A DNA stretch of 22,259 nt from Promethearchaeota archaeon (lineage in GTDB: Archaea; Asgardarchaeota; Lokiarchaeia; Sigyniarchaeales; SOKP01), in assembly GCA_004524535.1 (NCBI GenBank), contig SDNY01000057.1, forward strand, positions 1 to 22,259, given 5' to 3'. Below, piece after piece: positions 6,067-19,488 of this stretch. The notes under the pieces are model-generated. The model ran no database searches, was not told where the DNA came from, and was given only the letters and a program-made list of their open reading frames with translations. Made by a program: the position numbers and the translations under genes. Each line of letters starts with the position of its first letter. The stretch's first letter is position 1.

Positions 6067-6723
6067 TTAAATTAATTTTTTTAAGACTTCATTAACTCGA
6101 TATACCCTATTGATCCTATCAATCTTAATGAATCTTCTAATTTCCAGAGCATATAAAAAGTCCCTCATTTGGGCCTTATTTTTGCGTAATTTCTCTGCTA
6201 ATCCCCTAATATTAGTTTCATAATTGCAGAGAATTTGTAAAAGCTTTTTGTATTTTTTAAATATTTCTGATACTAAATATTTTAAAGATTCTTTTATATT
6301 TTGTCCAGTCTTTATACTTGACGGGAAAATTTTACAATCCTGAGGTAATTTAATTTGGGTTTGCAACATTTTAGGTGAACGTGCATCCTTCAAATCTTGT
6401 TTATTAGCTAAATAAACCTTTGGAATCTTCTGATTTTTTATTTCATTTAATACTGATATAGCATCGTTATCAGATTTGGGATGAGCAGCGTCAAAAATGA
6501 AAATAATTCCATCAGCACCATTTAAAATAATTTTTCTCATTATCTTAAATCTTGAAAGACCAGGTGTGCCGAACAATGTGATTTGAAAACCCTCAAAATT
6601 TATATATGCTACATCCATTGCGACGGTATGTCCTTTTACATGTACGTTCATAGAATCTTTATCAAAGAATTTAACATAAGTCGATTTTCCACTTTGAGAT
6701 GCCCCTGTAACTACTATCTTTAT
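6067..6723 (-). CDS. Small GTPase (MglA/Rup/ATP_bind_1-like) with a C-terminal winged-helix-like extension; probable ATA start
   Basis: G2 TVAMD, G3 FGTPG, G4 NKQD and G5 SSI lie in the listed ORF. The same frame extends upstream of ATG 6651 as IKIVVTGASQSGKSTYVKFFDKDS (G1 P-loop) up to TAA at 6729-6727. Confidence 0.85.
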   Translation of the reverse strand: MKIVVTGASQSGKSTYVKFFDKDSMNVHVKGHTVAMDVAYINFEGFQITLFGTPGLSRFKIMRKIILNGADGIIFIFDAAHPKSDNDAISVLNEIKNQKIPKVYLANKQDLKDARSPKMLQTQIKLPQDCKIFPSSIKTGQNIKESLKYLVSEIFKKYKKLLQILCNYETNIRGLAEKLRKNKAQMRDFLYALEIRRFIKIDRINRVYRVNEVLKKLI

Positions 6724-6793
6724 CCCTTATCACCAAATAGTAATATAGTTTGGTTAAAACCATTTTGTATCTAGTTAATATATATATTAAACT

Positions 6794-6832
6794 TCATCCA
6801 TTTAATCTTTCTTTATTCATAAAAATGGATGA
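6794..6832. repeat. 10-bp inverted repeat TCATCCATTT-N19-AAATGGATGA between frhB-like gene and GTPase
   Basis: Read directly. It is adjacent to a palindromic TATA-like element TTAATATATATATTAA (6775-6790). It could be a terminator hairpin or an operator. Confidence 0.5.
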
Positions 6833-6927
6833 GAGATATAAAATTGTCTCAACTTTTTATCAATTCTATAAAAAAAACATATTGAGTTTTTTTAAATAAG
6901 CAAAACGCTTGAAGAATTCAAAAATAA

Positions 6928-8070
6928 TCATCCATTTGGAAGAAGTTTCAAAGCTTCTTCTGCACGTTTTATTTTTTGTTGACTCATTGTAATAATCTTT
7001 GCCAACATTTTTGATTTTTCAACGGATGTATTAATTTCTGGCGATTCTGTAATATATCCCTTTTGCATTGCAAGATTATAGATCTTTTCTCCTTTTTCAG
7101 TGCGGATCAATGTAGTTGTAAAGCCATCTTTAGAGCCTAAACCCCCAAAAGATATGTCTGCATAATAATTTGAAAAATTTTGACAAACTGAGCATGCATG
7201 TCTCATAATATCTTTTAATTCTGAAAATTCAATTCTCAATGGTTCTTCCCTATTTTTAATATCAACAATTACATTCTCTTTAATATTGACCTTTTCAATA
7301 TCATCAAAAGAAAATTTAAAACGCTCTTCGATCCTGGCTCGAGTAGCGGTGTCAAATTTGAAATTTTCATAACAAAATAATCCTAAAGTATATTCTACTA
7401 CATGAGCAGGTATTATTTTGAGTTCTTGCATTTTTCTAATAGAATGTATTTGACAAGGAACACCTACTACAGCTATTTTCATATTACCTGAATAGACTAT
7501 ATGTTTCAGTTCAGAAATCGTAGAAACATAAGTATCATAATTAACTAATCCTGAAATTGGGCCTTTTATGTCATAAAGGGTTCCAGCAGCTTCTTTCAGT
7601 TCTTCTTTAGTTTTCGCAAAAAATGGTTGACGTCTGAATGAATTTATCCTTTTTGCAACGAGTGCCCCGTCAATTAAATTATTTTCTAACAGCGCAATTA
7701 AAATAGACGTTACAACTCCTCCATCTGTCCCTAATTTTTGGAGTTCAGAACTCACAGCTTGAGCAGAGACAATCTTTTTCCAGTGTCCTATAGGCGGTTT
7801 AAATTTATATTTAGAGTTTAGCTCTTCATTCAATTCGTGAATTTCTGGACATATTAAATAACATAAACCGCAATGTAAACAATTGTCTTCATTCATATAT
7901 TTTGGAGGGCCATCTTTCGTCATCTTGATAGCCCCAATATCTGCAGCCGAACAAAAGCTCACACATCCTCCACATTCTCCACAAATACCTTTCTCATGAA
8001 CCTCTTTTATAAGATCTTGGAATGATTTTGGATTAACTTCATCTGCTTTTGTTGGTGTATTTTCAGCCAT
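6928..8070 (-). CDS. Coenzyme F420 hydrogenase/dehydrogenase beta-subunit family protein (FrhB/FdhB/FpoF-like) with N-terminal 2x[4Fe-4S] ferredoxin domain
   Basis: CGECGGCVSFC and CLHCGLCYLICP ferredoxin motifs; FrhB-family motifs DGGVVT, VGVPCQI, GLFC and ACSVC..ADISFG. Confidence 0.9.
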   Translation of the reverse strand: MAENTPTKADEVNPKSFQDLIKEVHEKGICGECGGCVSFCSAADIGAIKMTKDGPPKYMNEDNCLHCGLCYLICPEIHELNEELNSKYKFKPPIGHWKKIVSAQAVSSELQKLGTDGGVVTSILIALLENNLIDGALVAKRINSFRRQPFFAKTKEELKEAAGTLYDIKGPISGLVNYDTYVSTISELKHIVYSGNMKIAVVGVPCQIHSIRKMQELKIIPAHVVEYTLGLFCYENFKFDTATRARIEERFKFSFDDIEKVNIKENVIVDIKNREEPLRIEFSELKDIMRHACSVCQNFSNYYADISFGGLGSKDGFTTTLIRTEKGEKIYNLAMQKGYITESPEINTSVEKSKMLAKIITMSQQKIKRAEEALKLLPNG

Positions 8071-8591
8071 AATTCTCTCTATTTTTTATATTTATATTAT
8101 CTTTACTTAATAATTTCTTAATGCTTTTTAATTTTATAATTTTTCTTATAAATTAACTAAATCTTTGCAAGAAATCATCCATTTTTCTTTTGGATTTTAA
8201 GATAATAGGAACATTTTTTCCTAAATCAATTATTATAAACCATAATTTTTTTTTTAATTAGGAATAATTTTATGAGGTTAAAAGATCCTAATTTTCTGAA
8301 CATTATAAATATCAAAAAATAAAAAGTCAATTTCTTACAAAAAATAATACTTTTCTCTTACTAAATTATTGAAAATAATTAAAAAATTGTTGAAAAATTA
8401 AAAAAAAAGTTGCAAAACTGAAATGATAAAAAAGTTTTAAATAATAATCAAAAACATAATATTAATAGTGGAGAAATTATTCAAATCATCCAAATTTTTG
8501 CAGAATGGAAAAGGAAATGGGAAAAATCTTCTGAATTTAATAAAAATAATCATAGAAAATTTAAATTATATAAAATAGAGTTAAGAACATT

Positions 8592-9095
8592 ATGCAGATG
8601 GTCAATTTTGATTTTAAAAATGAAATTATAAAGGAAGATTTCTCTTTAAATTACTGTTATCAATGTGGAACTTGTTCCAGTATCTGTCCTGTTGCTTTTG
8701 CTTCTGAGGGTGAATATAATCCCCGAAAAATCATAGAAGAGTCACTAATGGGTCTTAAAAGTTTGTTAATAAAAGAACAAAAACCAAATATATGGTTATG
8801 CAGCACTTGCCAAATGTGCGTTGAAGAATGTCCCCAAGAAGTCTTTTTAACTGGGATATTTGAAAGTTTAAAGAATAAAATTGTACAAACGGGAGAAAAA
8901 TATCCTGAAGCATTTAAAGTGCAAGCAAAAGCGATAATAGATAATGGTGTTGCAATTTCACTTAGTCCTCCTATAATTCGAAGAAGAAAGGAATTAAAAC
9001 TTCCGAATGTGGAATCTGCTGATAGAATCGAATTGAAAAATTTGCTGAAGGCTACTAATTTTGAAAAAAAAATAAATATTAATGGAGATAGGTGA
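8592..9095 (+). CDS. hdrC: Heterodisulfide reductase subunit C
   Basis: CYQCGTCSSICP and WLCSTCQMCVEECPQ motifs; lies directly upstream of hdrB. Confidence 0.92.
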   Translation: MQMVNFDFKNEIIKEDFSLNYCYQCGTCSSICPVAFASEGEYNPRKIIEESLMGLKSLLIKEQKPNIWLCSTCQMCVEECPQEVFLTGIFESLKNKIVQTGEKYPEAFKVQAKAIIDNGVAISLSPPIIRRRKELKLPNVESADRIELKNLLKATNFEKKININGDR

Positions 9096-9100
9096 AATAA

Positions 9101-9970
9101 TTGACATATAAATATTTCTTGGGTTGTGTTATTCCAGGAAGACTTCCTTATCTAGAGGCTTCTGCTCGTAAGACATTTGAGAAATTAGGAATGAAAGTGG
9201 GTGATCAAGCGAATTATTCCTGTTGTCCTGATCCAACAGGTGCAGGACAATTAGATCATCTAACTTGGTTAGCTTTAGGAGCAAGAAACTTATGTCTCTT
9301 TGAAGAGAGTAATAGTAATATTTTAAGTCTTTGCTCTGGATGTACAGAAACGCTTAAAGCTGTTAAATATTCATTAGAAAAGGATAACAAATTAAAAGAA
9401 GAGATAAATTCTAAATTAAATTCAATTGGAAAGAAATATAAAGGAAATGTTGAAGTTAAGCACTTTGCTCAAGTATTATACGAAAATATCGATTCTATTA
9501 AAAAAAAGGTTAAAAAACCCTTAAAGGATCTCAAAGTTGCTAGCCATCCTGGTTGTCATTATCTTAGACCATCTGAAATTATGCAATGGGATGATCCCTT
9601 GGTACCTAAAACATTAGATGAATTAATTGAAGCAATTGGGGCAGATCCAGTAGATTATAGCTTAAAAATTGATTGTTGTGGCAATCCTGTAGAAAAATCG
9701 AATAAAGATATCTCCTTGTTAATGTTAGAAAATAAACTTAAAAGCATGAAAGATGCTGGAACGGATTGTATTGCTTGTGTTTGCCCAGCATGTTATCAAC
9801 AATTTGAATTCAATCAAAAAGAAGTAAATAAAAATAGTAATACAAATTATAACTTTCCTGTTTTTTATATAACTGAATTAATTGCTCTAGCATTTGGTAT
9901 GAATGCTGAGGAAATAGGATTAAAATATCATCGAGTTAAAACTGATGAGATTTTACAAAAAATATCTTAA
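9101..9970 (+). CDS. hdrB: Heterodisulfide reductase subunit B
   Basis: Two CCG domains (GC..SCCP..CSGC and GCH..CCG..CPAC). TTG start with GGTGA SD-like motif at 9091-9095. Confidence 0.93.
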   Translation: MTYKYFLGCVIPGRLPYLEASARKTFEKLGMKVGDQANYSCCPDPTGAGQLDHLTWLALGARNLCLFEESNSNILSLCSGCTETLKAVKYSLEKDNKLKEEINSKLNSIGKKYKGNVEVKHFAQVLYENIDSIKKKVKKPLKDLKVASHPGCHYLRPSEIMQWDDPLVPKTLDELIEAIGADPVDYSLKIDCCGNPVEKSNKDISLLMLENKLKSMKDAGTDCIACVCPACYQQFEFNQKEVNKNSNTNYNFPVFYITELIALAFGMNAEEIGLKYHRVKTDEILQKIS

Positions 9971-9990
9971 ATATTAATAGGTGTAGTTAC

Positions 9991-11286
9991 TTGGGAACAA
10001 ATAAAAAAAGTGTTATGGTTATTGGAGGAGGAATCGCGGGGATACAGGCCTCCCTAGACCTTGCTGAACAAGGAATTGAAGTAAAACTGATTGAAAAAAA
10101 TGCCTGCATAGGAGGAAGAATGGCACAGCTTGATAAAACATTTCCAACAAATGATTGCTCTATATGCATTTTGGCTCCAAAGCTCGCTGAATGTTTTCGA
10201 CATCCTAGCATTCAACTGTATACATTGTCAGAAGTGAAAGATATATCAGGGGAAGCAGGGAATTTTAAAGTGAAAATACTTAAAAAAGCGAGATATGTGA
10301 AGGAAGAGGAATGTATCAATTGCGGTACTTGTATAGAAAAATGTCCTATGAGGGTAGATGATGAATTTGATATGTTATTAAGAAAACGTAGAGCGATTTA
10401 CATTGATTATGTTCAAGGTGTCCCTTCAATTGTGACAATAGATAGGGATAATTGTTTATTTTTTACAAAGGGAGCTTGTAGAATTTGTGAGAAGGTTTGT
10501 GAAAGGGAAGCAATAGATTTTGAACAACAAGATGAGGAAGTTGAATTAAATGTGGGCTCTATTATTGTTGCTACTGGTTATGATATTTTTAATCCAGAAT
10601 ATATTGAAACTCTTGGATATGGACGATTTCCTAATGTTGTAACAGCTCTGGAGTTTGAAAGATTAATTTGTGCTTCAGGACCGCTAGGAGGGCATTTATT
10701 AAGACCCTCAGATAAAGCAGAACCGAAAAAACTTGCCTTTATTAATTGTGTAGGTTCAAGAGATATAAAAAATAATCCTTATTGTTCCTCATGTTGCTGT
10801 ATGTACACTACAAAAGAGGCAATGATTGCTTATGAACATGATAATGAACTCGAGACTTCGATCTTTTATATTGATCTTAGAGCTGCAGGAAAGGGATTTC
10901 GAGATTATATTGAAAGAGGGCACAATGAATACGCGATTAATTATATTAAAGGAAAAGTTGCTAAAATTTTACAAGATGAGGCGAATAATCCCGTAATTGT
11001 CTACGAAGATATAAATACCTCAAAAGTAAAACAAATTAAATTTGATTTAGTTATTTTAGCAACGAGTATGGTTCCAAAAAAAGATGCTTCAAAATTATCC
11101 AATATTTTAGGTGTAGAGTTAGATGAATATAATTTTTTTAAAGGGGGGTTCTATCATCCCCAAAAATCCTCCAAAGAAGGGATTTTTCTCTGTGGAGCAT
11201 GTAGAGAACCAATGGATATTCCAAATTCTGTAATTGATGGGAGTGGAGCAGCGGCTAAAGCTGCAGAAATAGTAATGAGGGAATAA
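9991..11286 (+). CDS. hdrA: HdrA-family flavoprotein, module A (FAD core with inserted 2x[4Fe-4S] domain; lacks the N-terminal CHCG and C-terminal ferredoxin domains)
   Basis: GGGIAG Rossmann motif, LDKTFPTNDCSIC, CINCGTCIEKCP, CRICEKVC, CVGSR..YCSSCCCMY and GIFLCG..PMDIP. TTG start with AGGTG upstream. Confidence 0.9.
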   Translation: MGTNKKSVMVIGGGIAGIQASLDLAEQGIEVKLIEKNACIGGRMAQLDKTFPTNDCSICILAPKLAECFRHPSIQLYTLSEVKDISGEAGNFKVKILKKARYVKEEECINCGTCIEKCPMRVDDEFDMLLRKRRAIYIDYVQGVPSIVTIDRDNCLFFTKGACRICEKVCEREAIDFEQQDEEVELNVGSIIVATGYDIFNPEYIETLGYGRFPNVVTALEFERLICASGPLGGHLLRPSDKAEPKKLAFINCVGSRDIKNNPYCSSCCCMYTTKEAMIAYEHDNELETSIFYIDLRAAGKGFRDYIERGHNEYAINYIKGKVAKILQDEANNPVIVYEDINTSKVKQIKFDLVILATSMVPKKDASKLSNILGVELDEYNFFKGGFYHPQKSSKEGIFLCGACREPMDIPNSVIDGSGAAAKAAEIVMRE

Positions 11287-11290
11287 TAAA

Positions 11291-12958
11291 ATGGTGGATG
11301 AAGAAGTCAAAATTGGAGTATTTATTTGTCATTGCGGTACAAATATCGGAGGTATTTTAGATGTTCCTAATATAACAGAATATGCAAAAACATTACCTCA
11401 TGTTGTTTATGCAGCTGATAACCTTTACACCTGTTCAGAAGTAGGATTAACGCAAATTAGAGAAAATATAAAAGAGCATAATTTAAATCGGGTTATTGTG
11501 GCTTCTTGCTCTCCCCGAACACATGAGCCCTTGTTTAGAGCAACATGCTTTGAAGCAGGTTTAAATCCTTATTTATTTGAAATGGTAAATATTAGAGATC
11601 AAGACTCATGGGTTCACATGAAAGAACCAGAGAGAGGTACAGAAAAGGCTAAAGATCTTATTAGAATGGGGGTATATAAGGCAGCATTATTAGAACCATT
11701 AGAAAAAATAAAAGTCTCTATAATTCCGTCCGCTTTAGTAATTGGGGGAGGCATCTCGGGAATGAATGCCGCGCTTAATTTAGCGAATCGAGGTTTTGAA
11801 GTAAATTTGATCGAAAAAGAACCCCATCTAGGAGGTTTAATTAGATCTCTTAATAAAACTTATCCTACAAATGAGGACGCATCAAAATTATTAGAAATAA
11901 CGAATTTAGTAGAAGAAAATAAAAAAATTAAAGTATTTAAATCTGCAATTATAGAAAATATAGATGGTTTTGTTGGAAATTATAAAACAACTATAGTTCA
12001 AAATGAAAATCTTACAAAAATTGAGTCTGGTATCATTATTGTAGCAACTGGGGCATCTCCTTTATCACCAGAGGGTTATTACAGTTATAATGGAAAAGAT
12101 ATTATTAGCCAGATGGAATTAGAACATTTATTAAAAAATAATTCAGTTTATGCGAATAATGTTATCATGATTCAGTGTGTTGGATGTAGGAATGAAGAGC
12201 GAAAATATTGTTCTAATATATGTTGCATGGGTGCTCTTAAAAATGCAATGTTAATTAAAGAAAAAAATCCCGATGCACATGTTAGTATCATATTTAGGGA
12301 TATTCAGACAAAGGGAACAACTTATGAGGCATATTATAGAAAGGCAAGGGAAAAGGGAATTCTTTTTATAAAATATTTACCTGAAAAACCCCCAGTTATT
12401 AAAAAAGATCATATTCAGGTTTATAATGAATTTTTAAATCACGAAATTAGCATATCATACGACCTTATTGTATTATCAATGCCTCTCATCGCTAATGATG
12501 ATTCTGAAACTTTGGCGAAAATGTTAAAAGTTCCTTTAGAAGTGAATGGTTTCTTTTTGGAGGCACATGTGAAATTAAGACCTGTTGATTTTGCCACTGA
12601 TGGAATTTATGTCTGTGGTTCAGCTCATTGGCCTGCAGATATTTCAGAATGCATTTCTCAATCAAATGCAGCCGCCTCTAGAGCTAGTACAATATTATCG
12701 AAAGATATGTTAGAGGTGGAGGGTTCCACTGCTGAGATTAACGAGGATCTTTGCGTGGGATGTGAAGCATGTATTAAACTTTGTCCTTACAGTGCCATAT
12801 CTAAAGACGAAGAGACAGACACTGTAATTGTCAATAAAGTAATCTGCAAAGGATGTGGTGTGTGTGGTGCGAGTTGTCCTCATCAAGCAATAACTATTCA
12901 CCATTTTACGGGTGATCAAATTCTTTCAGCAATAGTAACATATGGGGGTGAAGAATAA
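11291..12958 (+). CDS. hdrA: HdrA-family flavoprotein, module B (N-terminal CHCG domain, FAD core, C-terminal 2x[4Fe-4S]; no inserted ferredoxin)
   Basis: IGVFICHCG, YTCS, ASCSPRTHEP, GGGISG, YCSNICC, EAHVKLRP, CVGCEACIKLCP and CKGCGVCGASCP. Confidence 0.9.
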   Translation: MVDEEVKIGVFICHCGTNIGGILDVPNITEYAKTLPHVVYAADNLYTCSEVGLTQIRENIKEHNLNRVIVASCSPRTHEPLFRATCFEAGLNPYLFEMVNIRDQDSWVHMKEPERGTEKAKDLIRMGVYKAALLEPLEKIKVSIIPSALVIGGGISGMNAALNLANRGFEVNLIEKEPHLGGLIRSLNKTYPTNEDASKLLEITNLVEENKKIKVFKSAIIENIDGFVGNYKTTIVQNENLTKIESGIIIVATGASPLSPEGYYSYNGKDIISQMELEHLLKNNSVYANNVIMIQCVGCRNEERKYCSNICCMGALKNAMLIKEKNPDAHVSIIFRDIQTKGTTYEAYYRKAREKGILFIKYLPEKPPVIKKDHIQVYNEFLNHEISISYDLIVLSMPLIANDDSETLAKMLKVPLEVNGFFLEAHVKLRPVDFATDGIYVCGSAHWPADISECISQSNAAASRASTILSKDMLEVEGSTAEINEDLCVGCEACIKLCPYSAISKDEETDTVIVNKVICKGCGVCGASCPHQAITIHHFTGDQILSAIVTYGGEE

Positions 12959-13729
12959 ATGACATTTGAACCAAAAATTCTTGGTTTTTTATGTAATTGG
13001 TGCTCATATGCGGGAGCTGATTTAGCAGGAGTTAGTCGAATACAATATCCCACAAATATTAGAGTTATTAGAGTTATGTGCTCTGGAAGGGTTGATCCTG
13101 TGTTTATCGCAGAGGCTTTCATTGAAGGTATTGATGGAGTTATTATTTTAGGGTGCCATTTAGGGGATTGTCATTATATAAGCGGTAATTACGAAACTGA
13201 ATTAAAAATGAAAATGTTAAGTAAATTATTGAATTTTATCGATTTTTCTGACAGGATCCGTCTTGATTGGGTGTCTGCTGCAGAAGGTAATAGATTTGCT
13301 CAAATTGTTGGAGAATTTACTGAACATATTCGTAAATTGGGTCCAAACCCACTAAAAGAAAAGAAGAAGAAAATCGAAATACTTGATAATTTAAACACAA
13401 TTAAAGCAGTTTTATCAGACAGGAGACTCAGAGGTTTAGTTGCAAGACAAAGAGAATTAACTACAGAGGGAAATGTATATAATAAAGTGATCTCATCAGA
13501 AGAATTTGAGAAATTCTTCGATGATGCCATCCTAAATGAATTATTACGTCATAAAATCATGATAAAAATAAGAGAAAAGGGGAAATCCGTCCCTAATATT
13601 GCAAAAGAGATTGGTATAGAGCCCTATAAAGTTTTACAACATATTGTTACATTAAGGGCTCGAGGATGGGTTGATGTAGATGAAATAAATGAAGAAATTC
13701 CAACTTTTATTTCAATTAAAGAGGGATAA
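12959..13729 (+). CDS. mvhD: MvhD ([2Fe-2S] adaptor) with a ~125-aa C-terminal extension ending in a winged-helix-like domain
   Basis: FLCNWCSYAGAD, RVMCSGRVDP, GCHLGDCHY and WVSAAEG. The tail KSVPNIAKEIGIEPYKVLQHIVTLRARGWV resembles an HTH. Confidence 0.9.
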   Translation: MTFEPKILGFLCNWCSYAGADLAGVSRIQYPTNIRVIRVMCSGRVDPVFIAEAFIEGIDGVIILGCHLGDCHYISGNYETELKMKMLSKLLNFIDFSDRIRLDWVSAAEGNRFAQIVGEFTEHIRKLGPNPLKEKKKKIEILDNLNTIKAVLSDRRLRGLVARQRELTTEGNVYNKVISSEEFEKFFDDAILNELLRHKIMIKIREKGKSVPNIAKEIGIEPYKVLQHIVTLRARGWVDVDEINEEIPTFISIKEG

Positions 13730-13731
13730 AA

Positions 13732-16700
13732 ATGGAAAAAGTCGGTGCAGTTTTAGTAATAGGAGGAGGGATAGCAGGTATGCAGGCTTCAATGGATTTA
13801 GCTGATTCTGGTTATAAAGTTTATTTAGCTGAATCCACAATGAGTATTGGAGGTGTTATGTCCCAATTAGATAAAACTTTTCCAACCAACGATTGTGCAA
13901 TATGTATCCTCGCGCCAAAATTAGTCGCCACAGGACGACATGAAAATATAACGTTATTAATAAATACCAATGTTGAAAAGATTGAAGGAGAAGCAGGTAA
14001 TTTCTCAGTTGAATTTAAGCAAAAAACATTATTAATAGATCAAGAAAAATGTACTGGATGCGGTGTTTGTGCCCAGGAGTGTCCAGTAGAGGCAATAGAC
14101 TTCTTTAACGAAGGGCTTTCCAATAGATCAGCTATTTCCGTTAAGTTTCCTCAAGCTGTTCCTTTGGTTTTTTCTATAAATCAAGATATATGTATTGGAT
14201 GTGGATTTTGTAAAGCTGTGTGTAAAGCTAATGCTGTAGATTACACACTTGAGGATAAAATAACCAAGCTTAATGTAGGTGCTATAATAATAGCGCCTGG
14301 ATTTGATGAATATGACCCTAGTCCAACGGAACATTATGGTTATGGTAAATATTTAAATGTTGTTACCAGTATTCAATTTGAACGAATATTAAGTGCAAGT
14401 GGTCCGCACTCAGGGCTCATTCTTAGACCTTCCGATGGGATTATTCCTAAAAAAATCGCATTTATCCAATGTGTTGGGTCAAGAGATAAAACGCATGGTG
14501 CAGAATATTGTTCCTCTGTCTGTTGTATGTATACTGCTAAAGAAGCGGTAATAGCTAAAGAACATATGGATATTGTACATCCAACCATTTTTTCAATGGA
14601 TATTAGAGCTTGTGGGAAAGATTTTGATAAATATATTGAACGAGCTCAGCAAGAATATGGTGTTAGATATATTAGGAGTAGAATTTCTACAATTAAAGAG
14701 ATTCCTGAATCAAAAGACTTAAGACTTTATTATGAGAGTGAAGATGGAAAGGTGGTTGAGGAGATCTTTAACTTAGTAGTATTAGCAGTTGGAGCACAAC
14801 CACATCATAGCACTAAAGAATTGGCAGAGAAATTAAATATCGAATTGAATGAATATAATTTTTGTCAAACTAAACCGTTTTCTCCTATTGAAACAACTAA
14901 AGAAGGCATATATGTATGTGGTATGTTTTCAGAACCTAAAGATATTCCAGAAACTGTAGTTGAAGCGAGTGCTGCTGCTGGAGCAACAAATATTTTATTA
15001 TCTGATGTAAGAAATACCTTAATTACAGAAAAAGAACTTCCTAAAGAGATTGATATTAGTGGTGAACCACCCCGAATTGGTGTTTTTATTTGCCATTGTG
15101 GAATTAATATTGGAGGAGTTGTTGATGTCCCCGAGGTTGTTGAATATGCAAGTAAATTACCTGATGTAATTCATGCAGAAAGAAATTTATATACATGCTC
15201 GGCAGATACACAAACGAATATTAAAGAGAAAATAAAGGAGCATAATTTAAATAGAGTGATAGTTGCTTCATGCACACCAAGAACGCATGAACCACTATTT
15301 CAAGCAACTATTAGAGAGGCGGGATTAAATAAATACCTTTTTGATTTAGCGAATATTAGAGATCAGTGTTCTTGGGTACATATGCATGAACCAGAAAAGG
15401 CTACTGATAAAGCAAAAGACTTAGTCAGAATGGCGATCGCGAAGGCACGAAAGTTGGTTCCATTACAAGAGCAAGAAGTGGAAGTGATTCATAAAGGAAT
15501 GGTAATCGGAGGAGGAGTTGCAGGGATGACGGCAGCCTTAAATTTAGCAAATCAAGGATTTGAAGTATTTCTTGTTGAAAAAGATGATAAATTAGGAGGT
15601 TTTTCAAGAAATATCTATCAAACCATAGAAGGTTATGACGTTCAAGATTTTCTAAAGAATTTAATCCAGAAAATTAACGAACATAAACTTATTAATGTTT
15701 TTCTTTCTGCTAAAATCAATTCTATTGAAGGTTATGTTTGTAATTTCACCACAAACATAAGTTATGGTAAGGATAAACAATCAAAGGAATTTAGACATGG
15801 GATAATAATTTTAGCTACTGGTGCTCACGAATATAAACCAAAAGAAGGAGAATATCTCTTTATACAAGATAAAAGAGTTATATTGCAGTCTGAACTTGAA
15901 AAAATTCTTTTTACTGATGAAGAAAAAATTAAACAATTAAACTCATTAACAATGATTCAATGTGTAGGGTCAAGAAACGAAGAACATCCTTATTGTAGCA
16001 GAATGTGTTGCTCTGAGGCCATCAAAAACGCATTGAAGGCCAAGGAGATTAATCCAAATCTGAATATTGTTGTTTTATACAGGGATATTAGAACTTATGG
16101 ATTTAAAGAAAGATATTACAATTTAGCTAGAGAAAAAGGGATTGTTTTTATTAGATTTAAAGAAGATAAAATACCAGAAATTAGAAAAGAAAATGGAAGT
16201 TTAGCTTTATATATAAATAGACCTGATATAGGAGAAATTGAAATTAAGACTGATCTAATAGCTCTAAGCGCCGGTATTATTGCTGACGGAGAAGCTAATG
16301 AAGGTCTAGCAAAAATGCTAAAGGTCCCTATTAACGATGATAAATTCTTCTTAGAGGCTCATGTAAAGCTTAGGCCCTCAGATTTTGCTACTGATGGAAT
16401 ATTTTTATGTGGAACTGCCCGAGGAACTGCAACAATTAGTGAAAGTGTCGCACAAGCGTTATCCGCTTCCTCAAGAGCAACTACTATCCTTTCTAAAGAG
16501 ATTTTGATTACAGAAGGTGTTATTTCCAGAGTCGACCCCGCATTATGTATTGGTTGTAATCGATGTGCTGAAGTATGCAATTATGGTGCGGTGGGAGTAA
16601 AATACGAAGAAGGGAAAATGGTCTCAGAAGTAAATCCATTACTATGCAAAGGATGCGGAGATTGTGCTGCTGAATGTCCTGCTGAAGCAATTACGATGAG

Positions 16701-17190
16701 CCACTTTGGACGCGTTCAGATTGAGCCCATGATTGCAGAGGCAGCAAGGACTGAATTTGAAAACGGCCGCCCAAGATTAATTGCTTTCCTTTGTAATTGG
16801 TGTAGTTATGCGGGAGCGGATTTAGCGGGAGTTAGTCGATATCAATATCCTCCAAATGTGAGAACCATTAGAGTGATGTGCTCTGGAGGGATTCCAAAAA
16901 GCTTCATTTTGCAAGCTTTCTTAGAAGGAGCGGATGGAGTTTTTATTGGGGGATGCCATATAGGGGATTGCCATTATATAGCGGGAAATCATGATACATT
17001 AAGAAGGACTAATGAAATTGAATCAAAGCTTGAATCACTGGGTATTAATCCCGAAAGATTTATGCGTAAATGGGTATCTGCTAGTGAGGGTAAAATCTTT
17101 TCTGAGACTATAACAGAATTTACTAATAAAATAAAAAAATTAGGTCCGATCGAGTTAGATTATAAAAAAAAAAATCAAAAAAAAGAATAA
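13732..17190 (+). CDS. hdrA: Large HdrA-MvhD fusion (module A + module B + MvhD; two FAD-binding cores)
   Basis: Two GGGxAG motifs, LDKTFPTNDCAIC, an internal IGVFICHCG (~15076) and C-terminal ferredoxin motifs. An MvhD domain starts at ~16768 (FLCNWCSYAGAD, GCHIGDCHY). Confidence 0.93.
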   Translation: MEKVGAVLVIGGGIAGMQASMDLADSGYKVYLAESTMSIGGVMSQLDKTFPTNDCAICILAPKLVATGRHENITLLINTNVEKIEGEAGNFSVEFKQKTLLIDQEKCTGCGVCAQECPVEAIDFFNEGLSNRSAISVKFPQAVPLVFSINQDICIGCGFCKAVCKANAVDYTLEDKITKLNVGAIIIAPGFDEYDPSPTEHYGYGKYLNVVTSIQFERILSASGPHSGLILRPSDGIIPKKIAFIQCVGSRDKTHGAEYCSSVCCMYTAKEAVIAKEHMDIVHPTIFSMDIRACGKDFDKYIERAQQEYGVRYIRSRISTIKEIPESKDLRLYYESEDGKVVEEIFNLVVLAVGAQPHHSTKELAEKLNIELNEYNFCQTKPFSPIETTKEGIYVCGMFSEPKDIPETVVEASAAAGATNILLSDVRNTLITEKELPKEIDISGEPPRIGVFICHCGINIGGVVDVPEVVEYASKLPDVIHAERNLYTCSADTQTNIKEKIKEHNLNRVIVASCTPRTHEPLFQATIREAGLNKYLFDLANIRDQCSWVHMHEPEKATDKAKDLVRMAIAKARKLVPLQEQEVEVIHKGMVIGGGVAGMTAALNLANQGFEVFLVEKDDKLGGFSRNIYQTIEGYDVQDFLKNLIQKINEHKLINVFLSAKINSIEGYVCNFTTNISYGKDKQSKEFRHGIIILATGAHEYKPKEGEYLFIQDKRVILQSELEKILFTDEEKIKQLNSLTMIQCVGSRNEEHPYCSRMCCSEAIKNALKAKEINPNLNIVVLYRDIRTYGFKERYYNLAREKGIVFIRFKEDKIPEIRKENGSLALYINRPDIGEIEIKTDLIALSAGIIADGEANEGLAKMLKVPINDDKFFLEAHVKLRPSDFATDGIFLCGTARGTATISESVAQALSASSRATTILSKEILITEGVISRVDPALCIGCNRCAEVCNYGAVGVKYEEGKMVSEVNPLLCKGCGDCAAECPAEAITMSHFGRVQIEPMIAEAARTEFENGRPRLIAFLCNWCSYAGADLAGVSRYQYPPNVRTIRVMCSGGIPKSFILQAFLEGADGVFIGGCHIGDCHYIAGNHDTLRRTNEIESKLESLGINPERFMRKWVSASEGKIFSETITEFTNKIKKLGPIELDYKKKNQKKE

Positions 17191-17227
17191 AAAATATTGT
17201 ATAAAGAAAAAAGAGGAGTTATGTAAT

Positions 17228-17926
17228 ATGATTATTACAGAACAAAAAGATATTGAAGAAATTTATGAAATGATAAAACCTTATTCAAAAATATTAGTTG
17301 CTGGATGCGATGGTTGCTGTCAGCCTCCTCGTTCGATAAATGAGGCTAAAGTGCTAGCTCAGATGTTAGAATTGAAGGCAAGAAGCGAAGGAAAAGAACT
17401 AAAATGGAAAGCAATTACTGTTTTAAGGCAATGTGATGATAGAATTGTTGCTACCACAGTTAGACCATTTATAGAAGAATTTGACGTAATCGTATCACTT
17501 TCCTGTGGACTAGGTGTGGTAATGATGAATAAAGTATTTCCCAATATTCTTACATTTCCCGCTCAAAATAGTAAATTTGGGGGGGCAGAAAATAATGCAG
17601 AGAATCAATTCGTAGAATATTGCGAAACTTGTGGAGAATGTTTATTAGGAGTCACTGGGGGAGTTTGCCCTATGGCGGGGTGTGCTAAAAATCTTAGTAA
17701 TGGCCCATGTGGAGGGACCGTAGGAGGGAAATGTGAAGTTGGCGGATATACTCATGATTGTGCATGGGTTAAAATCTGGGAACGACTTAAAAAATTTAAT
17801 AGACTTGATCTTTTTACTCAATATAGACCCCCAAGAAATTATCGTTTATGGTCAAGCCCAAGATTTAAAGAAATAAATAAGACATATACCAACGTAGAAG
17901 AATCAAATAAGGAGGAGAAACAATAA
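17228..17926 (+). CDS. metV: Methylenetetrahydrofolate reductase small Fe-S/Zn subunit (MetV, MTHFR_C domain)
   Basis: GCDGC, RQCD, SCG, CETCGEC, GVCPMAGCAKNLSNGPCGG, KCEV and CAW; directly upstream of metF. Confidence 0.9.
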   Translation: MIITEQKDIEEIYEMIKPYSKILVAGCDGCCQPPRSINEAKVLAQMLELKARSEGKELKWKAITVLRQCDDRIVATTVRPFIEEFDVIVSLSCGLGVVMMNKVFPNILTFPAQNSKFGGAENNAENQFVEYCETCGECLLGVTGGVCPMAGCAKNLSNGPCGGTVGGKCEVGGYTHDCAWVKIWERLKKFNRLDLFTQYRPPRNYRLWSSPRFKEINKTYTNVEESNKEEKQ

Positions 17927-17927
17927 A

Positions 17928-18860
17928 ATGGCAAATAGAACTGCATATAGCAATTTGGTAAAAACAATGAGGGAAGGTAAATTCCTTTTTACTGGAGAAT
18001 TAGAGCCAAAAAAAATGTTTGATCTATCCTCTGTACTTCATTCAGCTGAAGAAATGAAAAAAACAGGGAAAATTGTTGCAGCTAATGTTACAGACGGACC
18101 ACAAGGAGATGCATATACATGTTCAATGGTACCAAGTTATTTAGTCCAGGAAAAGGTTGGATTAGAGGCAATTTGGCAGATGACTGTGAGAGATAGAAAT
18201 CGGATTGCACTATTTGGAGACATTTTAGGTGGATCGATTCTTGGACTTAAAAATCTGCTAGCATTGACGGGAGACCATTCAGCTTTAGGGGATAATAAAA
18301 ACGCAAGAGCTGTCTATGATCTCGATTCCACGCAGTTAATCGATTTAGTCTCCAAAATGGTCGATGATGGTACTGATCTAGAAGGTAATGAAATTGAAGG
18401 CGGGAAAGTTGAAATGAATGTGGGATGCGCTGCTAATCCAAATTCGGATCCCAGAGAACCAGAGATCCTAAAAGTAGGAAGAAAAGTTGAAGTTGGCGCT
18501 GATTTCATACAGACTCAAACTTCTTTCGATATTGATGAAGCTAAAGAGTTTCTAAAAGATTTGGAAAAATTCAATATTCCCGTGTTACTTGGTTTATTTC
18601 CAATAAAAAATTACGGGATAGCATGGTATTTCAACGAATATATTCCAGGAGTATCTGTTCCCAAAGATTTCTTGAACGACCTTAAAGCTACTAAAAAAAT
18701 AAAAGATAAGAAAGAAAAATATGCGAAAATTGATCAGATTAATATTGACTTTTACGTACCATTTATTAAGGAAATCAAGAAAACTACGAAAGCGGCTGGT
18801 GTACATTGTATGGCAGTTCATTATGAAAGACTTTTCGAGCCGCTATTAAAGGAATTTTAA
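17928..18860 (+). CDS. metF: Methylenetetrahydrofolate reductase flavin subunit (MetF)
   Basis: FTGELEP, NVTD, TVRDRNRIAL, LALTGD and KVEVGADFIQTQ motifs. Confidence 0.93.
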   Translation: MANRTAYSNLVKTMREGKFLFTGELEPKKMFDLSSVLHSAEEMKKTGKIVAANVTDGPQGDAYTCSMVPSYLVQEKVGLEAIWQMTVRDRNRIALFGDILGGSILGLKNLLALTGDHSALGDNKNARAVYDLDSTQLIDLVSKMVDDGTDLEGNEIEGGKVEMNVGCAANPNSDPREPEILKVGRKVEVGADFIQTQTSFDIDEAKEFLKDLEKFNIPVLLGLFPIKNYGIAWYFNEYIPGVSVPKDFLNDLKATKKIKDKKEKYAKIDQINIDFYVPFIKEIKKTTKAAGVHCMAVHYERLFEPLLKEF

Positions 18861-18899
18861 AATATAAATTAGAAAATTAATGAAATATCAAAATAAGAT

Positions 18900-18953
18900 A
18901 TGAATCAGAAGGATAAACAATTTCTCGAAATGTTATTGGACGATTGTAGAAGA
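18900..18953 (+). pseudogene. Remnant of the 5' end of an Lrp/AsnC-type HTH gene
   Basis: Translates as MNQKDKQFLEMLLDDCRR, versus LDEKDKIILEMLIEDSRR at the start of the adjacent Lrp gene (10/18 identical, ungapped). Similarity ends there. Confidence 0.6.
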
Positions 18954-18972
18954 TTTTTAATAGTAAAATATC

Positions 18973-18982
18973 TTTTTTTTTT
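18973..18982 (+). terminator. Oligo-T terminator candidate for the hdr-met operon
   Basis: T10 tract about 110 nt downstream of the metF stop. Confidence 0.5.
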
Positions 18983-19029
18983 ATCAAGAATAAAATTAGT
19001 TAAATCCAAAATAAATAAAAGGTACATTC

Positions 19030-19488
19030 ATGAAAAATTTAGACGAAAAAGACAAGATAATCCTTGAAATGCTAATAGAAGATTCAAGAAGACCATATCG
19101 CGAGATTGCGGATGGAATAGGATTGTCTGAATCAACAGTAAGAAAAAGAGTTATTCGGTTGCAAGAGGGTGGTGTAATTGAGAAGTTCACGATAAGGATC
19201 TGCCGAGAAGAAGAACGTTGTATAATTGCTTTTATCACTTTAATACCAAAATCGGAGATGGAAATAAAAGAATTATTAAGAGAGACTCAAGTATTACCTC
19301 AATGCGAAGAAGTTTACTTTCTTGCCGGTCAATGTGGGGTTTTAATTAAAGTTAATGTACCTGAAATTAACGAATTGGATGCATTAATGGAGTCTTTTCG
19401 TGCAAGGAGTGATGTAAAGAGCGTAGAGCGTGTTTGCGTTGTCTTAAAACCAATTAAAACTCCTACACCTAACAATCATCAATTTTAA
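19030..19488 (+). CDS. Lrp/AsnC family transcriptional regulator
   Basis: N-terminal HTH LDEKDKIIL..DSRRPYREIADGIGLSESTVRKRVIRL..GVI, followed by a RAM-like domain (EEVYFLAG). Confidence 0.92.
   Translation: MKNLDEKDKIILEMLIEDSRRPYREIADGIGLSESTVRKRVIRLQEGGVIEKFTIRICREEERCIIAFITLIPKSEMEIKELLRETQVLPQCEEVYFLAGQCGVLIKVNVPEINELDALMESFRARSDVKSVERVCVVLKPIKTPTPNNHQF

Follow-up and report, generated by a model that had tools for sequence, protein, structure and literature searches.

Gene content of the locus

We analysed a stretch of 22,259 nucleotides from a Promethearchaeota archaeon, referred to throughout as the window, which constitutes the entire contig C147 of a 3.66-Mb genome in 198 contigs that is rated 99% complete. 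Open reading frame (ORF) listing and Pfam searches placed eight plus-strand genes in the window, in the order hdrC, hdrB, hdrA(a), hdrA(b), mvhD, an hdrA(a-b)-mvhD fusion, metV and metF, with intergenic gaps from hdrC to metF of 5, 20, 4, 0, 2, 37 and 1 nt, and a minus-strand gene for a ferredoxin-FrhB protein, hereafter FrhBl, that is divergent from hdrC across 521 bp (8071-8591). What is new in this arrangement is a predicted Asgard reductase of the heterodisulfide reductase (Hdr) type, built on MetV and MetF (MetVF), with a doubled, HdrA2-like and FrhB-associated core. The searchable full-text literature, outside of which lie supplements and many subscription papers, has no description of FrhB combined with HdrBC, a double HdrA set and MetVF in an Asgard archaeon; the component ideas, among them an F420-fed Hdr via FrhB in other archaea, are already in print. 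The features of the locus are as follows.

6928-8070, minus strand: FrhBl, ferredoxin-FrhB protein, 380 aa (Pfam: 2x[4Fe-4S] ferredoxin, FrhB_N 130 bits, FrhB_C 61 bits)
8071-8591, no strand: divergent AT-rich intergenic region, 521 bp (ORF listing)
8592-9095, plus strand: HdrC-like protein, 167 aa, two CxxCxxCxxxC motifs (Pfam; TIGR03290 87 bits, under the cut-off)
9101-9970, plus strand: HdrB, 289 aa, two CCG domains (Pfam; TIGR03288 297 bits, cut-off 345)
9991-11286, plus strand: HdrA module a, 431 aa (alignment to 5odc_A residues 145-562; module alignment)
11291-12958, plus strand: HdrA module b, 555 aa (alignment to 8rvu_a; module alignment)
12959-13729, plus strand: MvhD-long, 256 aa (Pfam FlpD 175 bits; extra C-terminal half)
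13732-17190, plus strand: fused HdrA(a)-HdrA(b)-MvhD, 1152 aa (Pfam, module alignment, NCBIfam HdrA2 model)
17228-17926, plus strand: MetV, 232 aa, Cys-rich (PF12225)
17928-18860, plus strand: MetF, 310 aa, methylenetetrahydrofolate reductase (MTHFR) fold (PF02219)
19030-19488, plus strand: Lrp/AsnC-type regulator, directly 3' of metF in nearly all relatives

In the window, metV and metF are co-oriented with and adjoin hdrC, hdrB, hdrA and mvhD, the gene order by which Hdr-type MTHFRs are recognised, and the acetogen Hdr-type MTHFRs of Moorella thermoacetica and Sporomusa ovata comprise the same six protein families in one gene string. A chance arrangement is excluded because the same gene order is kept in many relatives. 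Gene string and domains support the original prediction of an archaeal operon equivalent to that for the Hdr-type MetVF methylene-tetrahydrofolate reductase. Its description of the locus, with eight co-oriented genes separated by 0-37 nt and a stand-alone ferredoxin-FrhB gene transcribed divergently across 521 bp, was borne out by ORFs and Pfam, as was its statement that mvhAG, fdh and flx are absent from the window. Among the 18 ORFs of at least 80 aa outside overlaps, 3 of which have no Pfam match, Pfam revealed no gene for a NiFe hydrogenase, a formate dehydrogenase or an Flx-type protein, and neither mvhA nor mvhG, which accompany the hdr and mvhD genes in MvhAGD-HdrABC, was found in the window.

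Complementary HdrA modules and a long MvhD

The possibility that the separate hdrA genes are simple duplicates was rejected by alignments, in which modules a and b proved to be complementary halves. Aligned to 5ODC_A, whose numbering is used here, module a comprises a thioredoxin reductase (TrxR)-like flavin domain, an inserted ferredoxin domain and the Cys194/Cys197 pair, and lacks the N-terminal iron-sulfur (FeS) domain as well as the C-terminal ferredoxin domain. Module b, aligned to 8rvu_a and to the other modules, has the N-terminal FeS domain, the flavin domain and the C-terminal 2x[4Fe-4S] ferredoxin domain, and its flavin domain is without the CxxC pair and without the inserted ferredoxin domain. 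The 1152-aa protein has the order a-b-MvhD, with the Cys197-bearing module first, and is a predicted pseudo-heterodimer in a single chain. Complementary tandem or fused HdrA proteins have been taken as heterodimeric HdrA (Chadwick 2022). In the tandem or fused HdrA of ANME-1, a group of anaerobic methanotrophic archaea, and of Syntrophoarchaeum, the Cys197 pair and the N-terminal domain are lost in the same complementary way, whereas the order of modules in ANME HdrA3/4 is the reverse of that in the fused HdrA of the window (Chadwick 2022).

The additional TrxR-like flavin module and a C-terminal HdrA part without an inserted ferredoxin domain, which mark Hdr-type MTHFRs, are both found in the window, and both are shared with the acetogen enzymes (Kremp 2022). 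Equivalents of Glu356 and Lys409 are present, as a sequence signature only, in all four flavin modules of the module alignment; this Glu/Lys pair is the signature of the bifurcating HdrA flavin (Kremp 2022). No GltD/Fer4_20 domain and no second dinucleotide-binding GxGxxG motif was detected in any HdrA module by Pfam and motif inspection, in agreement with the claim of the original prediction that a GltD-like NAD(P)H domain is missing here. The NADH-input domain that it had ascribed to Moorella HdrA is confirmed as a GltD NAD(P)H domain by Kremp 2022, where the HdrA of S. ovata is described without it, like that of the window.

The fused HdrA scored 1172.6 bits on the NCBIfam HdrA2 model (NF040770; cut-off 1100), a sum reached via three stretches of the doubled HdrA, and the split modules scored 526 and 541 bits, under the cut-off; HdrA2 is nevertheless the nearest NCBIfam model for all HdrA and MvhD parts of the window. 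In HdrB, both CCG domains have complete cysteine sets. MvhD-long is twice the usual length, with an MvhD [2Fe-2S] domain (residues 1-130) and a C-terminal extension (residues ~130-256) that is conserved across an alignment of 24 homologues. Its structural model (pLDDT 84) shows the extension as helices and a small domain, and the fold matches were 5odc_D and a weak likeness to an ArsR-type winged helix. This extension is confined to the MvhD copy placed after HdrA(b).

FrhBl resembles plug-in F420 reductase subunits

The N-terminal 2x[4Fe-4S] ferredoxin domain of FrhBl contains Cys30/33/36/40 and Cys64/67/70/74, and its core (FrhB_N and FrhB_C) contains four Cys at positions 206, 233, 293 and 296; all 12 Cys are invariant across an alignment of 17 homologues. 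The best matches in the PDB were 8rja_E (E 2.5e-46, residues 17-375, full length) and 8riu_B (E 1.5e-37), followed by FrhB and the F420 domain of Fsr. FrhBl was also considered as an FdhB, and this was rejected, since its matches to FdhB chains are much poorer (E 3e-14 to 5e-7). The structures 8RJA and 8RIU are the formylmethanofuran dehydrogenase (Fwd) and the CO dehydrogenase (CODH) of Ca. Ethanoperedens thermophilum, in each of which an extra subunit was shown to reduce F420 and is anchored via its N-terminal ferredoxin domain (Lemaire et al. 2024). These subunits, FwdI and CODH-zeta, have the same architecture and length as FrhBl, with an N-terminal two-cluster ferredoxin followed by an FrhB-like FAD/[4Fe-4S] domain, and the parts that define such a module (2x[4Fe-4S], FrhB_N, FrhB_C and four cluster Cys) are all present in FrhBl. 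Its domain plan and its match to F420-reductase subunits suggest that FrhBl most likely works like a plug-in F420 reductase. FwdI and CODH-zeta are bound to Fwd and CODH, whereas the partner of FrhBl, judged from genes alone, is an Hdr core. A structure prediction of MvhD-long with FrhBl gave no verdict (score 0.00, no controls) and weighs neither way.

The divergent region between FrhBl and hdrC contains a conserved 17-nt block, AATACTTTTYTCTTACT, at 8346-8362, approximately 230-246 nt upstream of hdrC, which emerged from an alignment of four FrhBl-positive loci. We found this block in 7 of 83 loci, FrhBl-positive and FrhBl-negative alike, and we assign it to the hdr side because it lies upstream of hdrC with and without FrhBl. 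It may be a promoter or operator element. A scan for sigma-70 promoters and terminators gave sites not above those in shuffles, with a bacterial model that is inapplicable to archaea.

Two cassettes occupy the same site in relatives

Upstream of the genes described above, the window encodes phosphoenolpyruvate carboxykinase, two major facilitator superfamily transporters and a small Ras/Arf-like GTPase, and the Lrp/AsnC regulator downstream is accompanied by a gene with a metallo-beta-lactamase fold. Across the phylum, 262 of 399 genomes have a MetF homologue (E <=1e-20), and within the family the figure is 126 of 133; we compared 60 loci from a genome sample and 79 from named records. Nine loci in a second batch of 20 from the genome sample were chosen for genomes without an FrhBl match of at least 70%, so absences are over-represented among them. 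The locus labelling sometimes gave the a+b pair as a weak 'HdrAAD' match (L019, L070, L090, L091), and MvhD-long is present in L019 and L070.

Across one family, either of two cassettes is found at a single position flanked by the GTPase and Lrp genes. The common cassette consists of a fused HdrA-MvhD, HdrC, HdrB, MetV and MetF, and it was found in 18 loci of the genome sample, in 30 of the 43 Promethearchaeota-type loci of the named-record sample, and in all four of the other examined members of the window's own genus. The window-type cassette (HdrC, HdrB, HdrA(a), HdrA(b), MvhD-long, fused HdrA-MvhD, MetV and MetF) occurs in two other genera. In 15 of 37 relatives whose best MetF is at least 80% identical to that of the window, an FrhBl orthologue (70-73% identity) lies on the same contig, 6-11 kb from MetF and at the same divergent position, and these relatives belong to two genera; taken from coordinates, this count is free of the absence-weighted choice of loci. 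Within the same set of relatives, the cluster is degenerate in two (L025, L073), the common cassette is present in three (L014, L015, L071), and 10 were not classed because of contig ends or because the locus was not fetched. The named-record sample contained 13 window-type loci, of which eight have FrhBl and the other five are cut. A sub-variant in which FrhBl is directly divergent from hdrA(a), with no hdrC or hdrB, was seen at L018, L084, L087 and L088.

The flanks of the window are 87-95% identical to those of the same-genus genome G167, which carries the other cassette (site 6652-18995), whereas the window cassette is 70-90% like those of the two other genera. This contrast between flanks and cassette points to a swap by recombination or to an old polymorphism.

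In other genomes, FrhBl orthologues stand at the end of a co-oriented operon without MetVF, HdrC-HdrB-HdrA(a)-HdrA(b)-MvhD-long-HdrAA-MvhD-X1-X2-X3-FrhBl, with 72-73% identity in one genus (g2) and 53-61% in many other genomes. Here X1 stands for an FeS protein whose FrhB domain is degenerate, X2 for an AsrA-like Fer4_22 protein, and X3 for a PyrK/AsrB-like FAD, NAD(P)H and [2Fe-2S] protein; examples of this stretch are L054 6819-9747, L057 10999-13931 and contig C15 12892-14941 of the window genome (L074). The combination of X1-X3 with the Hdr core and FrhBl suggests that F420 and NAD(P)H are connected through an Hdr complex.

Hdr genes also lie beside MetVF in other Asgard classes (L034, L036, L038/L151), in a Halobacteriota metagenome-assembled genome (L159) and in Ca. 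Syntrophoarchaeum (L144), where MetVF is accompanied by tandem a/b HdrA and MvhD; the clustering of MetFV, HdrA and MvhD in Syntrophoarchaeum was described by Chadwick 2022. Most Bathyarchaeia loci have MetF-MetV only, and the window MetF falls within an archaeal MetF clade common to Bathyarchaeia and Syntrophoarchaeum. No FrhBl match (E <=1e-8, within 10 kb) was found in the 36 loci L127-L162. Seven records that are syntenic with the family and have a MetF 66-81% identical are titled Thor-, Hod-, Odin- or Hermodarchaeota (L094, L096, L101, L102, L106, L107, L125), and these phylum labels of the submitters look inconsistent.

Paralogous Hdr, FrhB and MetVF loci in the same genome

The genome that contains the window has further Hdr loci with FrhB genes. 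On contig C15, a single strand carries HdrC-HdrB-FrhB-HdrA(a)-HdrA(b)-MvhD-long-HdrAA-MvhD and then two FeS proteins, with FrhB inside the operon, and on C152 (553-14479, L075) a single strand carries, in this order, an HdrCB fusion, HdrA(a), HdrA(b)-MvhD, a fused HdrA-MvhD, FrhB, another fused HdrA and MvhD-long. Three HdrA pseudo-dimers are thus encoded on C152, an FrhB gene lies in their midst, and a substrate module is not apparent. The divergent layout of FrhB and Hdr is seen again on C113. In total, the genome has 12 FrhB_C matches, 11 of them above the cut-off. Among the FrhB-family proteins, one of 922 aa is an FrhB domain fused to a GltD-like module (C151 11133-13901), one of 612 aa is fused to a PyrK-like NAD(P)H/[2Fe-2S] module (C189 12756-14594), and one of 482 aa has a weak match to a TrmB-type helix-turn-helix (C151 4126-5574).

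Two further MetV-MetF pairs, at approximately 49% identity, bring the genome total to three. One is on C29 (930-2546, L077), and because the first 149 nt of C29 are the last 149 nt of the window, this pair probably lies about 4 kb past the window end, as in relatives. The other is on C105 (4848-8034, L078), where a lipoamide-dehydrogenase-like gene comes next; C105 and C15 overlap by 130 nt, at the end of the former and the start of the latter.

Origin of the window's Hdr core from FrhB-associated paralogues

We built a quick maximum-likelihood tree from the first 1010 residues of 47 fused HdrA rows, leaving out L065, with fewer than 900 residues aligned, and the degenerate L025 and L073. The fused HdrA of the common cassette formed one clade of 19 rows (support 100), in which other Asgard classes are also represented and whose branching broadly agrees with taxonomy. 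The window-type fused HdrA formed another clade, of 14 rows (support 100), which is sister to the genome's own C152 copy and stands next to the C15-type clade. HdrC and HdrB of the window share 30-39% identity with those of the common cassette, 55-59% with those of C15 and 70-72% with those of the FrhB-ending operon of genus g2, while MetV and MetF are 62-76% identical between the cassettes. The tree and the HdrC/HdrB identities therefore indicate that an ancestral MetVF locus exchanged its Hdr genes for those of a copied FrhB-associated Hdr operon. As far as such comparisons of sequence reach, this shows that the Hdr core of the window derives from FrhB-associated Hdr paralogues and not from the common MetVF-linked core, and MetVF would thus have taken the place of the NAD(P)H module beside the FrhB-associated core. 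FrhB is predicted to belong to the type of Hdr core, not to MetVF, since the common cassette is without it and the core comes from FrhB-associated paralogues.

C1 metabolism and hydrogenases

A match to Mer was not found in the genome, where the best score was 138.2 bits at a TIGR03555 cut-off of 348.7, in line with the earlier suggestion of C1 metabolism without Mer. Mtd (357 bits) and Mch (366 bits) are both encoded on contig C119, and CdhC of the CO dehydrogenase/acetyl-CoA synthase and FolD are also present, whereas Fhs was not found by profile search of the genome. There are two genes for NiFe hydrogenase large subunits, one on C51 beside hdrCB paralogues and one on C151 beside an HdrA-MvhD fusion.

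Comparison with known systems

In S. ovata, pull-downs showed that MetVF interacts physically with HdrA, HdrB and MvhD, and purified MetVF uses reduced ferredoxin in vitro, while the electron donor and the second acceptor of the bacterial Hdr-type reductase are still unknown (Kremp 2022). Compared by description, and not with the bacterial sequences, the window differs from the acetogen Hdr-type MTHFRs in having two HdrA pseudo-heterodimers, two MvhD domains, one of them in a long protein, and a neighbouring FrhB-type gene. In addition, its host is archaeal and has Mtd and Mch, and for this reason the substrate of the window reductase is probably tetrahydromethanopterin (H4MPT)-bound rather than tetrahydrofolate (H4F)-bound. 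For archaea, MetF has been proposed to replace Mer, possibly docking on HdrA (Chadwick 2022), and FrhB-HdrA-MvhD has been proposed as an F420-linked complex (Korarchaeia 2023 paper; Culexarchaeia paper). The HdrA2B2C2 complex of Methanosarcina acetivorans resembles the window in the fusion of HdrA to MvhD, and its donor F420H2 and its acceptors ferredoxin and disulfide have been shown. On the other hand, HdrA2 is a single HdrA-MvhD chain, without MetVF and FrhB, and its substrate is CoM-S-S-CoB. Mer acts at the same pathway step and with the same proposed donor, F420H2, but it consists of one luciferase-like protein, has no FeS clusters and does not bifurcate, and its architecture is unrelated to the window complex.

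A proposed role for the operon and its alternatives

We give an even chance to the reading in which the operon encodes an Hdr-type, flavin-based bifurcating or confurcating methylene-H4MPT (or methylene-H4F) reductase that replaces Mer, with FrhBl as the accessory F420 port of a swapped-in Hdr core. Such a reductase would stand in for the missing Mer in the Wood-Ljungdahl pathway's methyl branch in a Lokiarchaeia-type Asgard archaeon. Its two MvhD domains would be two entry ports: MetVF would dock at one of them, by analogy with the complex of S. ovata and Moorella, and FrhBl, as an FAD/[4Fe-4S] F420 reductase with a ferredoxin anchor, would dock at the second MvhD or at the HdrA ferredoxin site. 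The flavins would then split or merge electron pairs among F420H2, methylene-/methyl-H4MPT, ferredoxin and the disulfide at HdrB. The FrhB-associated Hdr core, which in relatives would serve an NAD(P)H module, would have replaced the smaller common MetVF-linked core at the same locus. Standard potentials are approximately -340 to -380 mV for F420, -320 mV for methylene-H4MPT, -200 mV for methylene-H4F, -450 to -520 mV for ferredoxin and -140 mV for the heterodisulfide. Judged by these potentials, the methyl-H4MPT/methylene-H4MPT couple could be the mid-potential partner of a ferredoxin/disulfide bifurcation, and the F420 port would in that case be a second mid-potential entry.

Several observations weigh against this role of FrhBl. 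The gene is divergently transcribed and lies outside the operon, and its closest orthologues (g2, 72-73%) belong to an Hdr operon without MetVF. At least 7 of the 37 relatives that have a window-type MetF are without FrhBl even though their sequence is complete as far as the GTPase gene (L020, L064, L066-L070); L064 is a reduced locus with the fused HdrA alone beside MetVF, and L020 and L066-L070 are six full window-type loci. No FrhBl homologue stands beside any of the 30 common-cassette loci of the named-record sample, and one of the 18 in the genome sample (G149, L029) has an adjacent FrhB-family gene, which is a different paralogue (33% identity), co-oriented directly upstream and lacking from the sister genome G147. 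Furthermore, FrhBl-positive and FrhBl-negative loci are interspersed in the window-type clade, with at least three changes, and FrhBl has therefore been lost or gained repeatedly. HdrA2 of M. acetivorans oxidises F420H2 by itself and HdrA2B2C2 bifurcates without FrhB (Yan 2017), so FrhB may be dispensable because HdrA2-type proteins can use F420H2 directly. Finally, CofG and CofH were not found in the 198-contig assembly. CofD and CofE are neighbours on contig C26, and of 41 sampled genomes from this family 38 have CofH (36 of them scoring past the curated cut-off), against none of 14 genomes from a sister family within the order. A genome without F420 biosynthesis was rejected on these grounds, and they also make an assembly gap the likelier reading of the missing CofG and CofH; the presence of F420 biosynthesis is thus supported by CofD and CofE here and by CofH in the family, and not by CofG or CofH in this assembly.

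The loci without FrhBl and the direct use of F420H2 by HdrA2 favour the main alternative, to which we grant a sizeable chance, though one well short of even, namely that the MetVF-Hdr complex works without FrhBl, either by confurcation of reduced ferredoxin and a dithiol onto methylene-H4MPT or with F420H2 used directly at the HdrA2-like flavins. FrhBl would then be a leftover of the donor Hdr cluster that works independently as a ferredoxin:F420 oxidoreductase or is a partner of other Hdr paralogues. In its favour, the window HdrA modules score best on the HdrA2 model, purified MetVF accepts reduced ferredoxin in vitro as cited above, a soluble FqoF-type role between ferredoxin and F420 has been proposed elsewhere (Korarchaeia 2023 paper), and approximately 12 FrhB-family loci in the genome have many partners. 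It is countered by the retention of FrhBl at the same divergent position in the 15 relatives from two genera, by the FrhB genes within the two paralogous Hdr operons of C15 and C152, and by the independent FrhB paralogue that joined the common cassette in G149. We also considered H2 as the donor, with an MvhAG-type [NiFe] hydrogenase encoded elsewhere docking on one MvhD as in methanogen MvhAGD-HdrABC. The two NiFe large-subunit genes of the genome would permit this, but both adjoin Hdr or MvhD partners of their own and the window has no hydrogenase gene, which makes it very improbable; no hydrogenase gene was seen at the MetVF loci of relatives either, a weak point of this argument, as they were scanned with the window proteins, a scan blind to hydrogenases. 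Smaller still is the chance of an anabolic or oxidative cluster in which MetVF would produce or oxidise methyl-H4F in methionine or methyl-group metabolism, with Hdr disposing of electrons outside the Wood-Ljungdahl pathway. The presence of FolD without Fhs would fit this, and with three MetVF pairs, one of them beside a lipoamide-dehydrogenase-like gene, not every MetF need serve a catabolic pathway; yet the genome has Mtd, Mch and CdhC but no Mer, and the Hdr-linked MetVF is the copy that is conserved across Asgard classes.

Returning to FrhBl as the F420 port of the Hdr core, the original prediction that this protein may feed F420H2 electrons into the complex, which was to be judged by synteny, stands in part, and a lack of conservation beside the operon, named there as grounds for refutation, is half borne out. 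An F420 reductase is a credible identity for FrhBl, FrhB genes recur in linkage with this type of Hdr core, and FrhBl adjoins the hdr and metVF genes in 15 of the 37 relatives, but its absence from complete loci and from the 30 common-cassette loci indicates that the gene is not conserved beside MetVF. A link of the operon to F420 is plausible from gene content and could equally go either way, and FrhBl is best described as a putative accessory port, kept in roughly half to two thirds of window-type loci, and not as an obligatory MetVF subunit. A more specific model, which we think unlikely to hold in full, is a two-port, four-flavin Hdr supercomplex with FrhBl at one MvhD and MetVF at the other, which would make the Mer step energy-coupled by reducing ferredoxin and/or disulfide; the two cassettes would then represent electron-input machinery exchanged in nature around an unchanging MetVF.

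How electrons are supplied or withdrawn at the methylene/methyl step in archaea that have MetF for Mer is an open question, stated for ANME-1 by Chadwick 2022. In the family described here, one kind of MetVF is joined to either of two interchangeable Hdr cassettes, an F420 module being present or absent, and the locus is thus a naturally modular system that provides defined constructs for heterologous expression.

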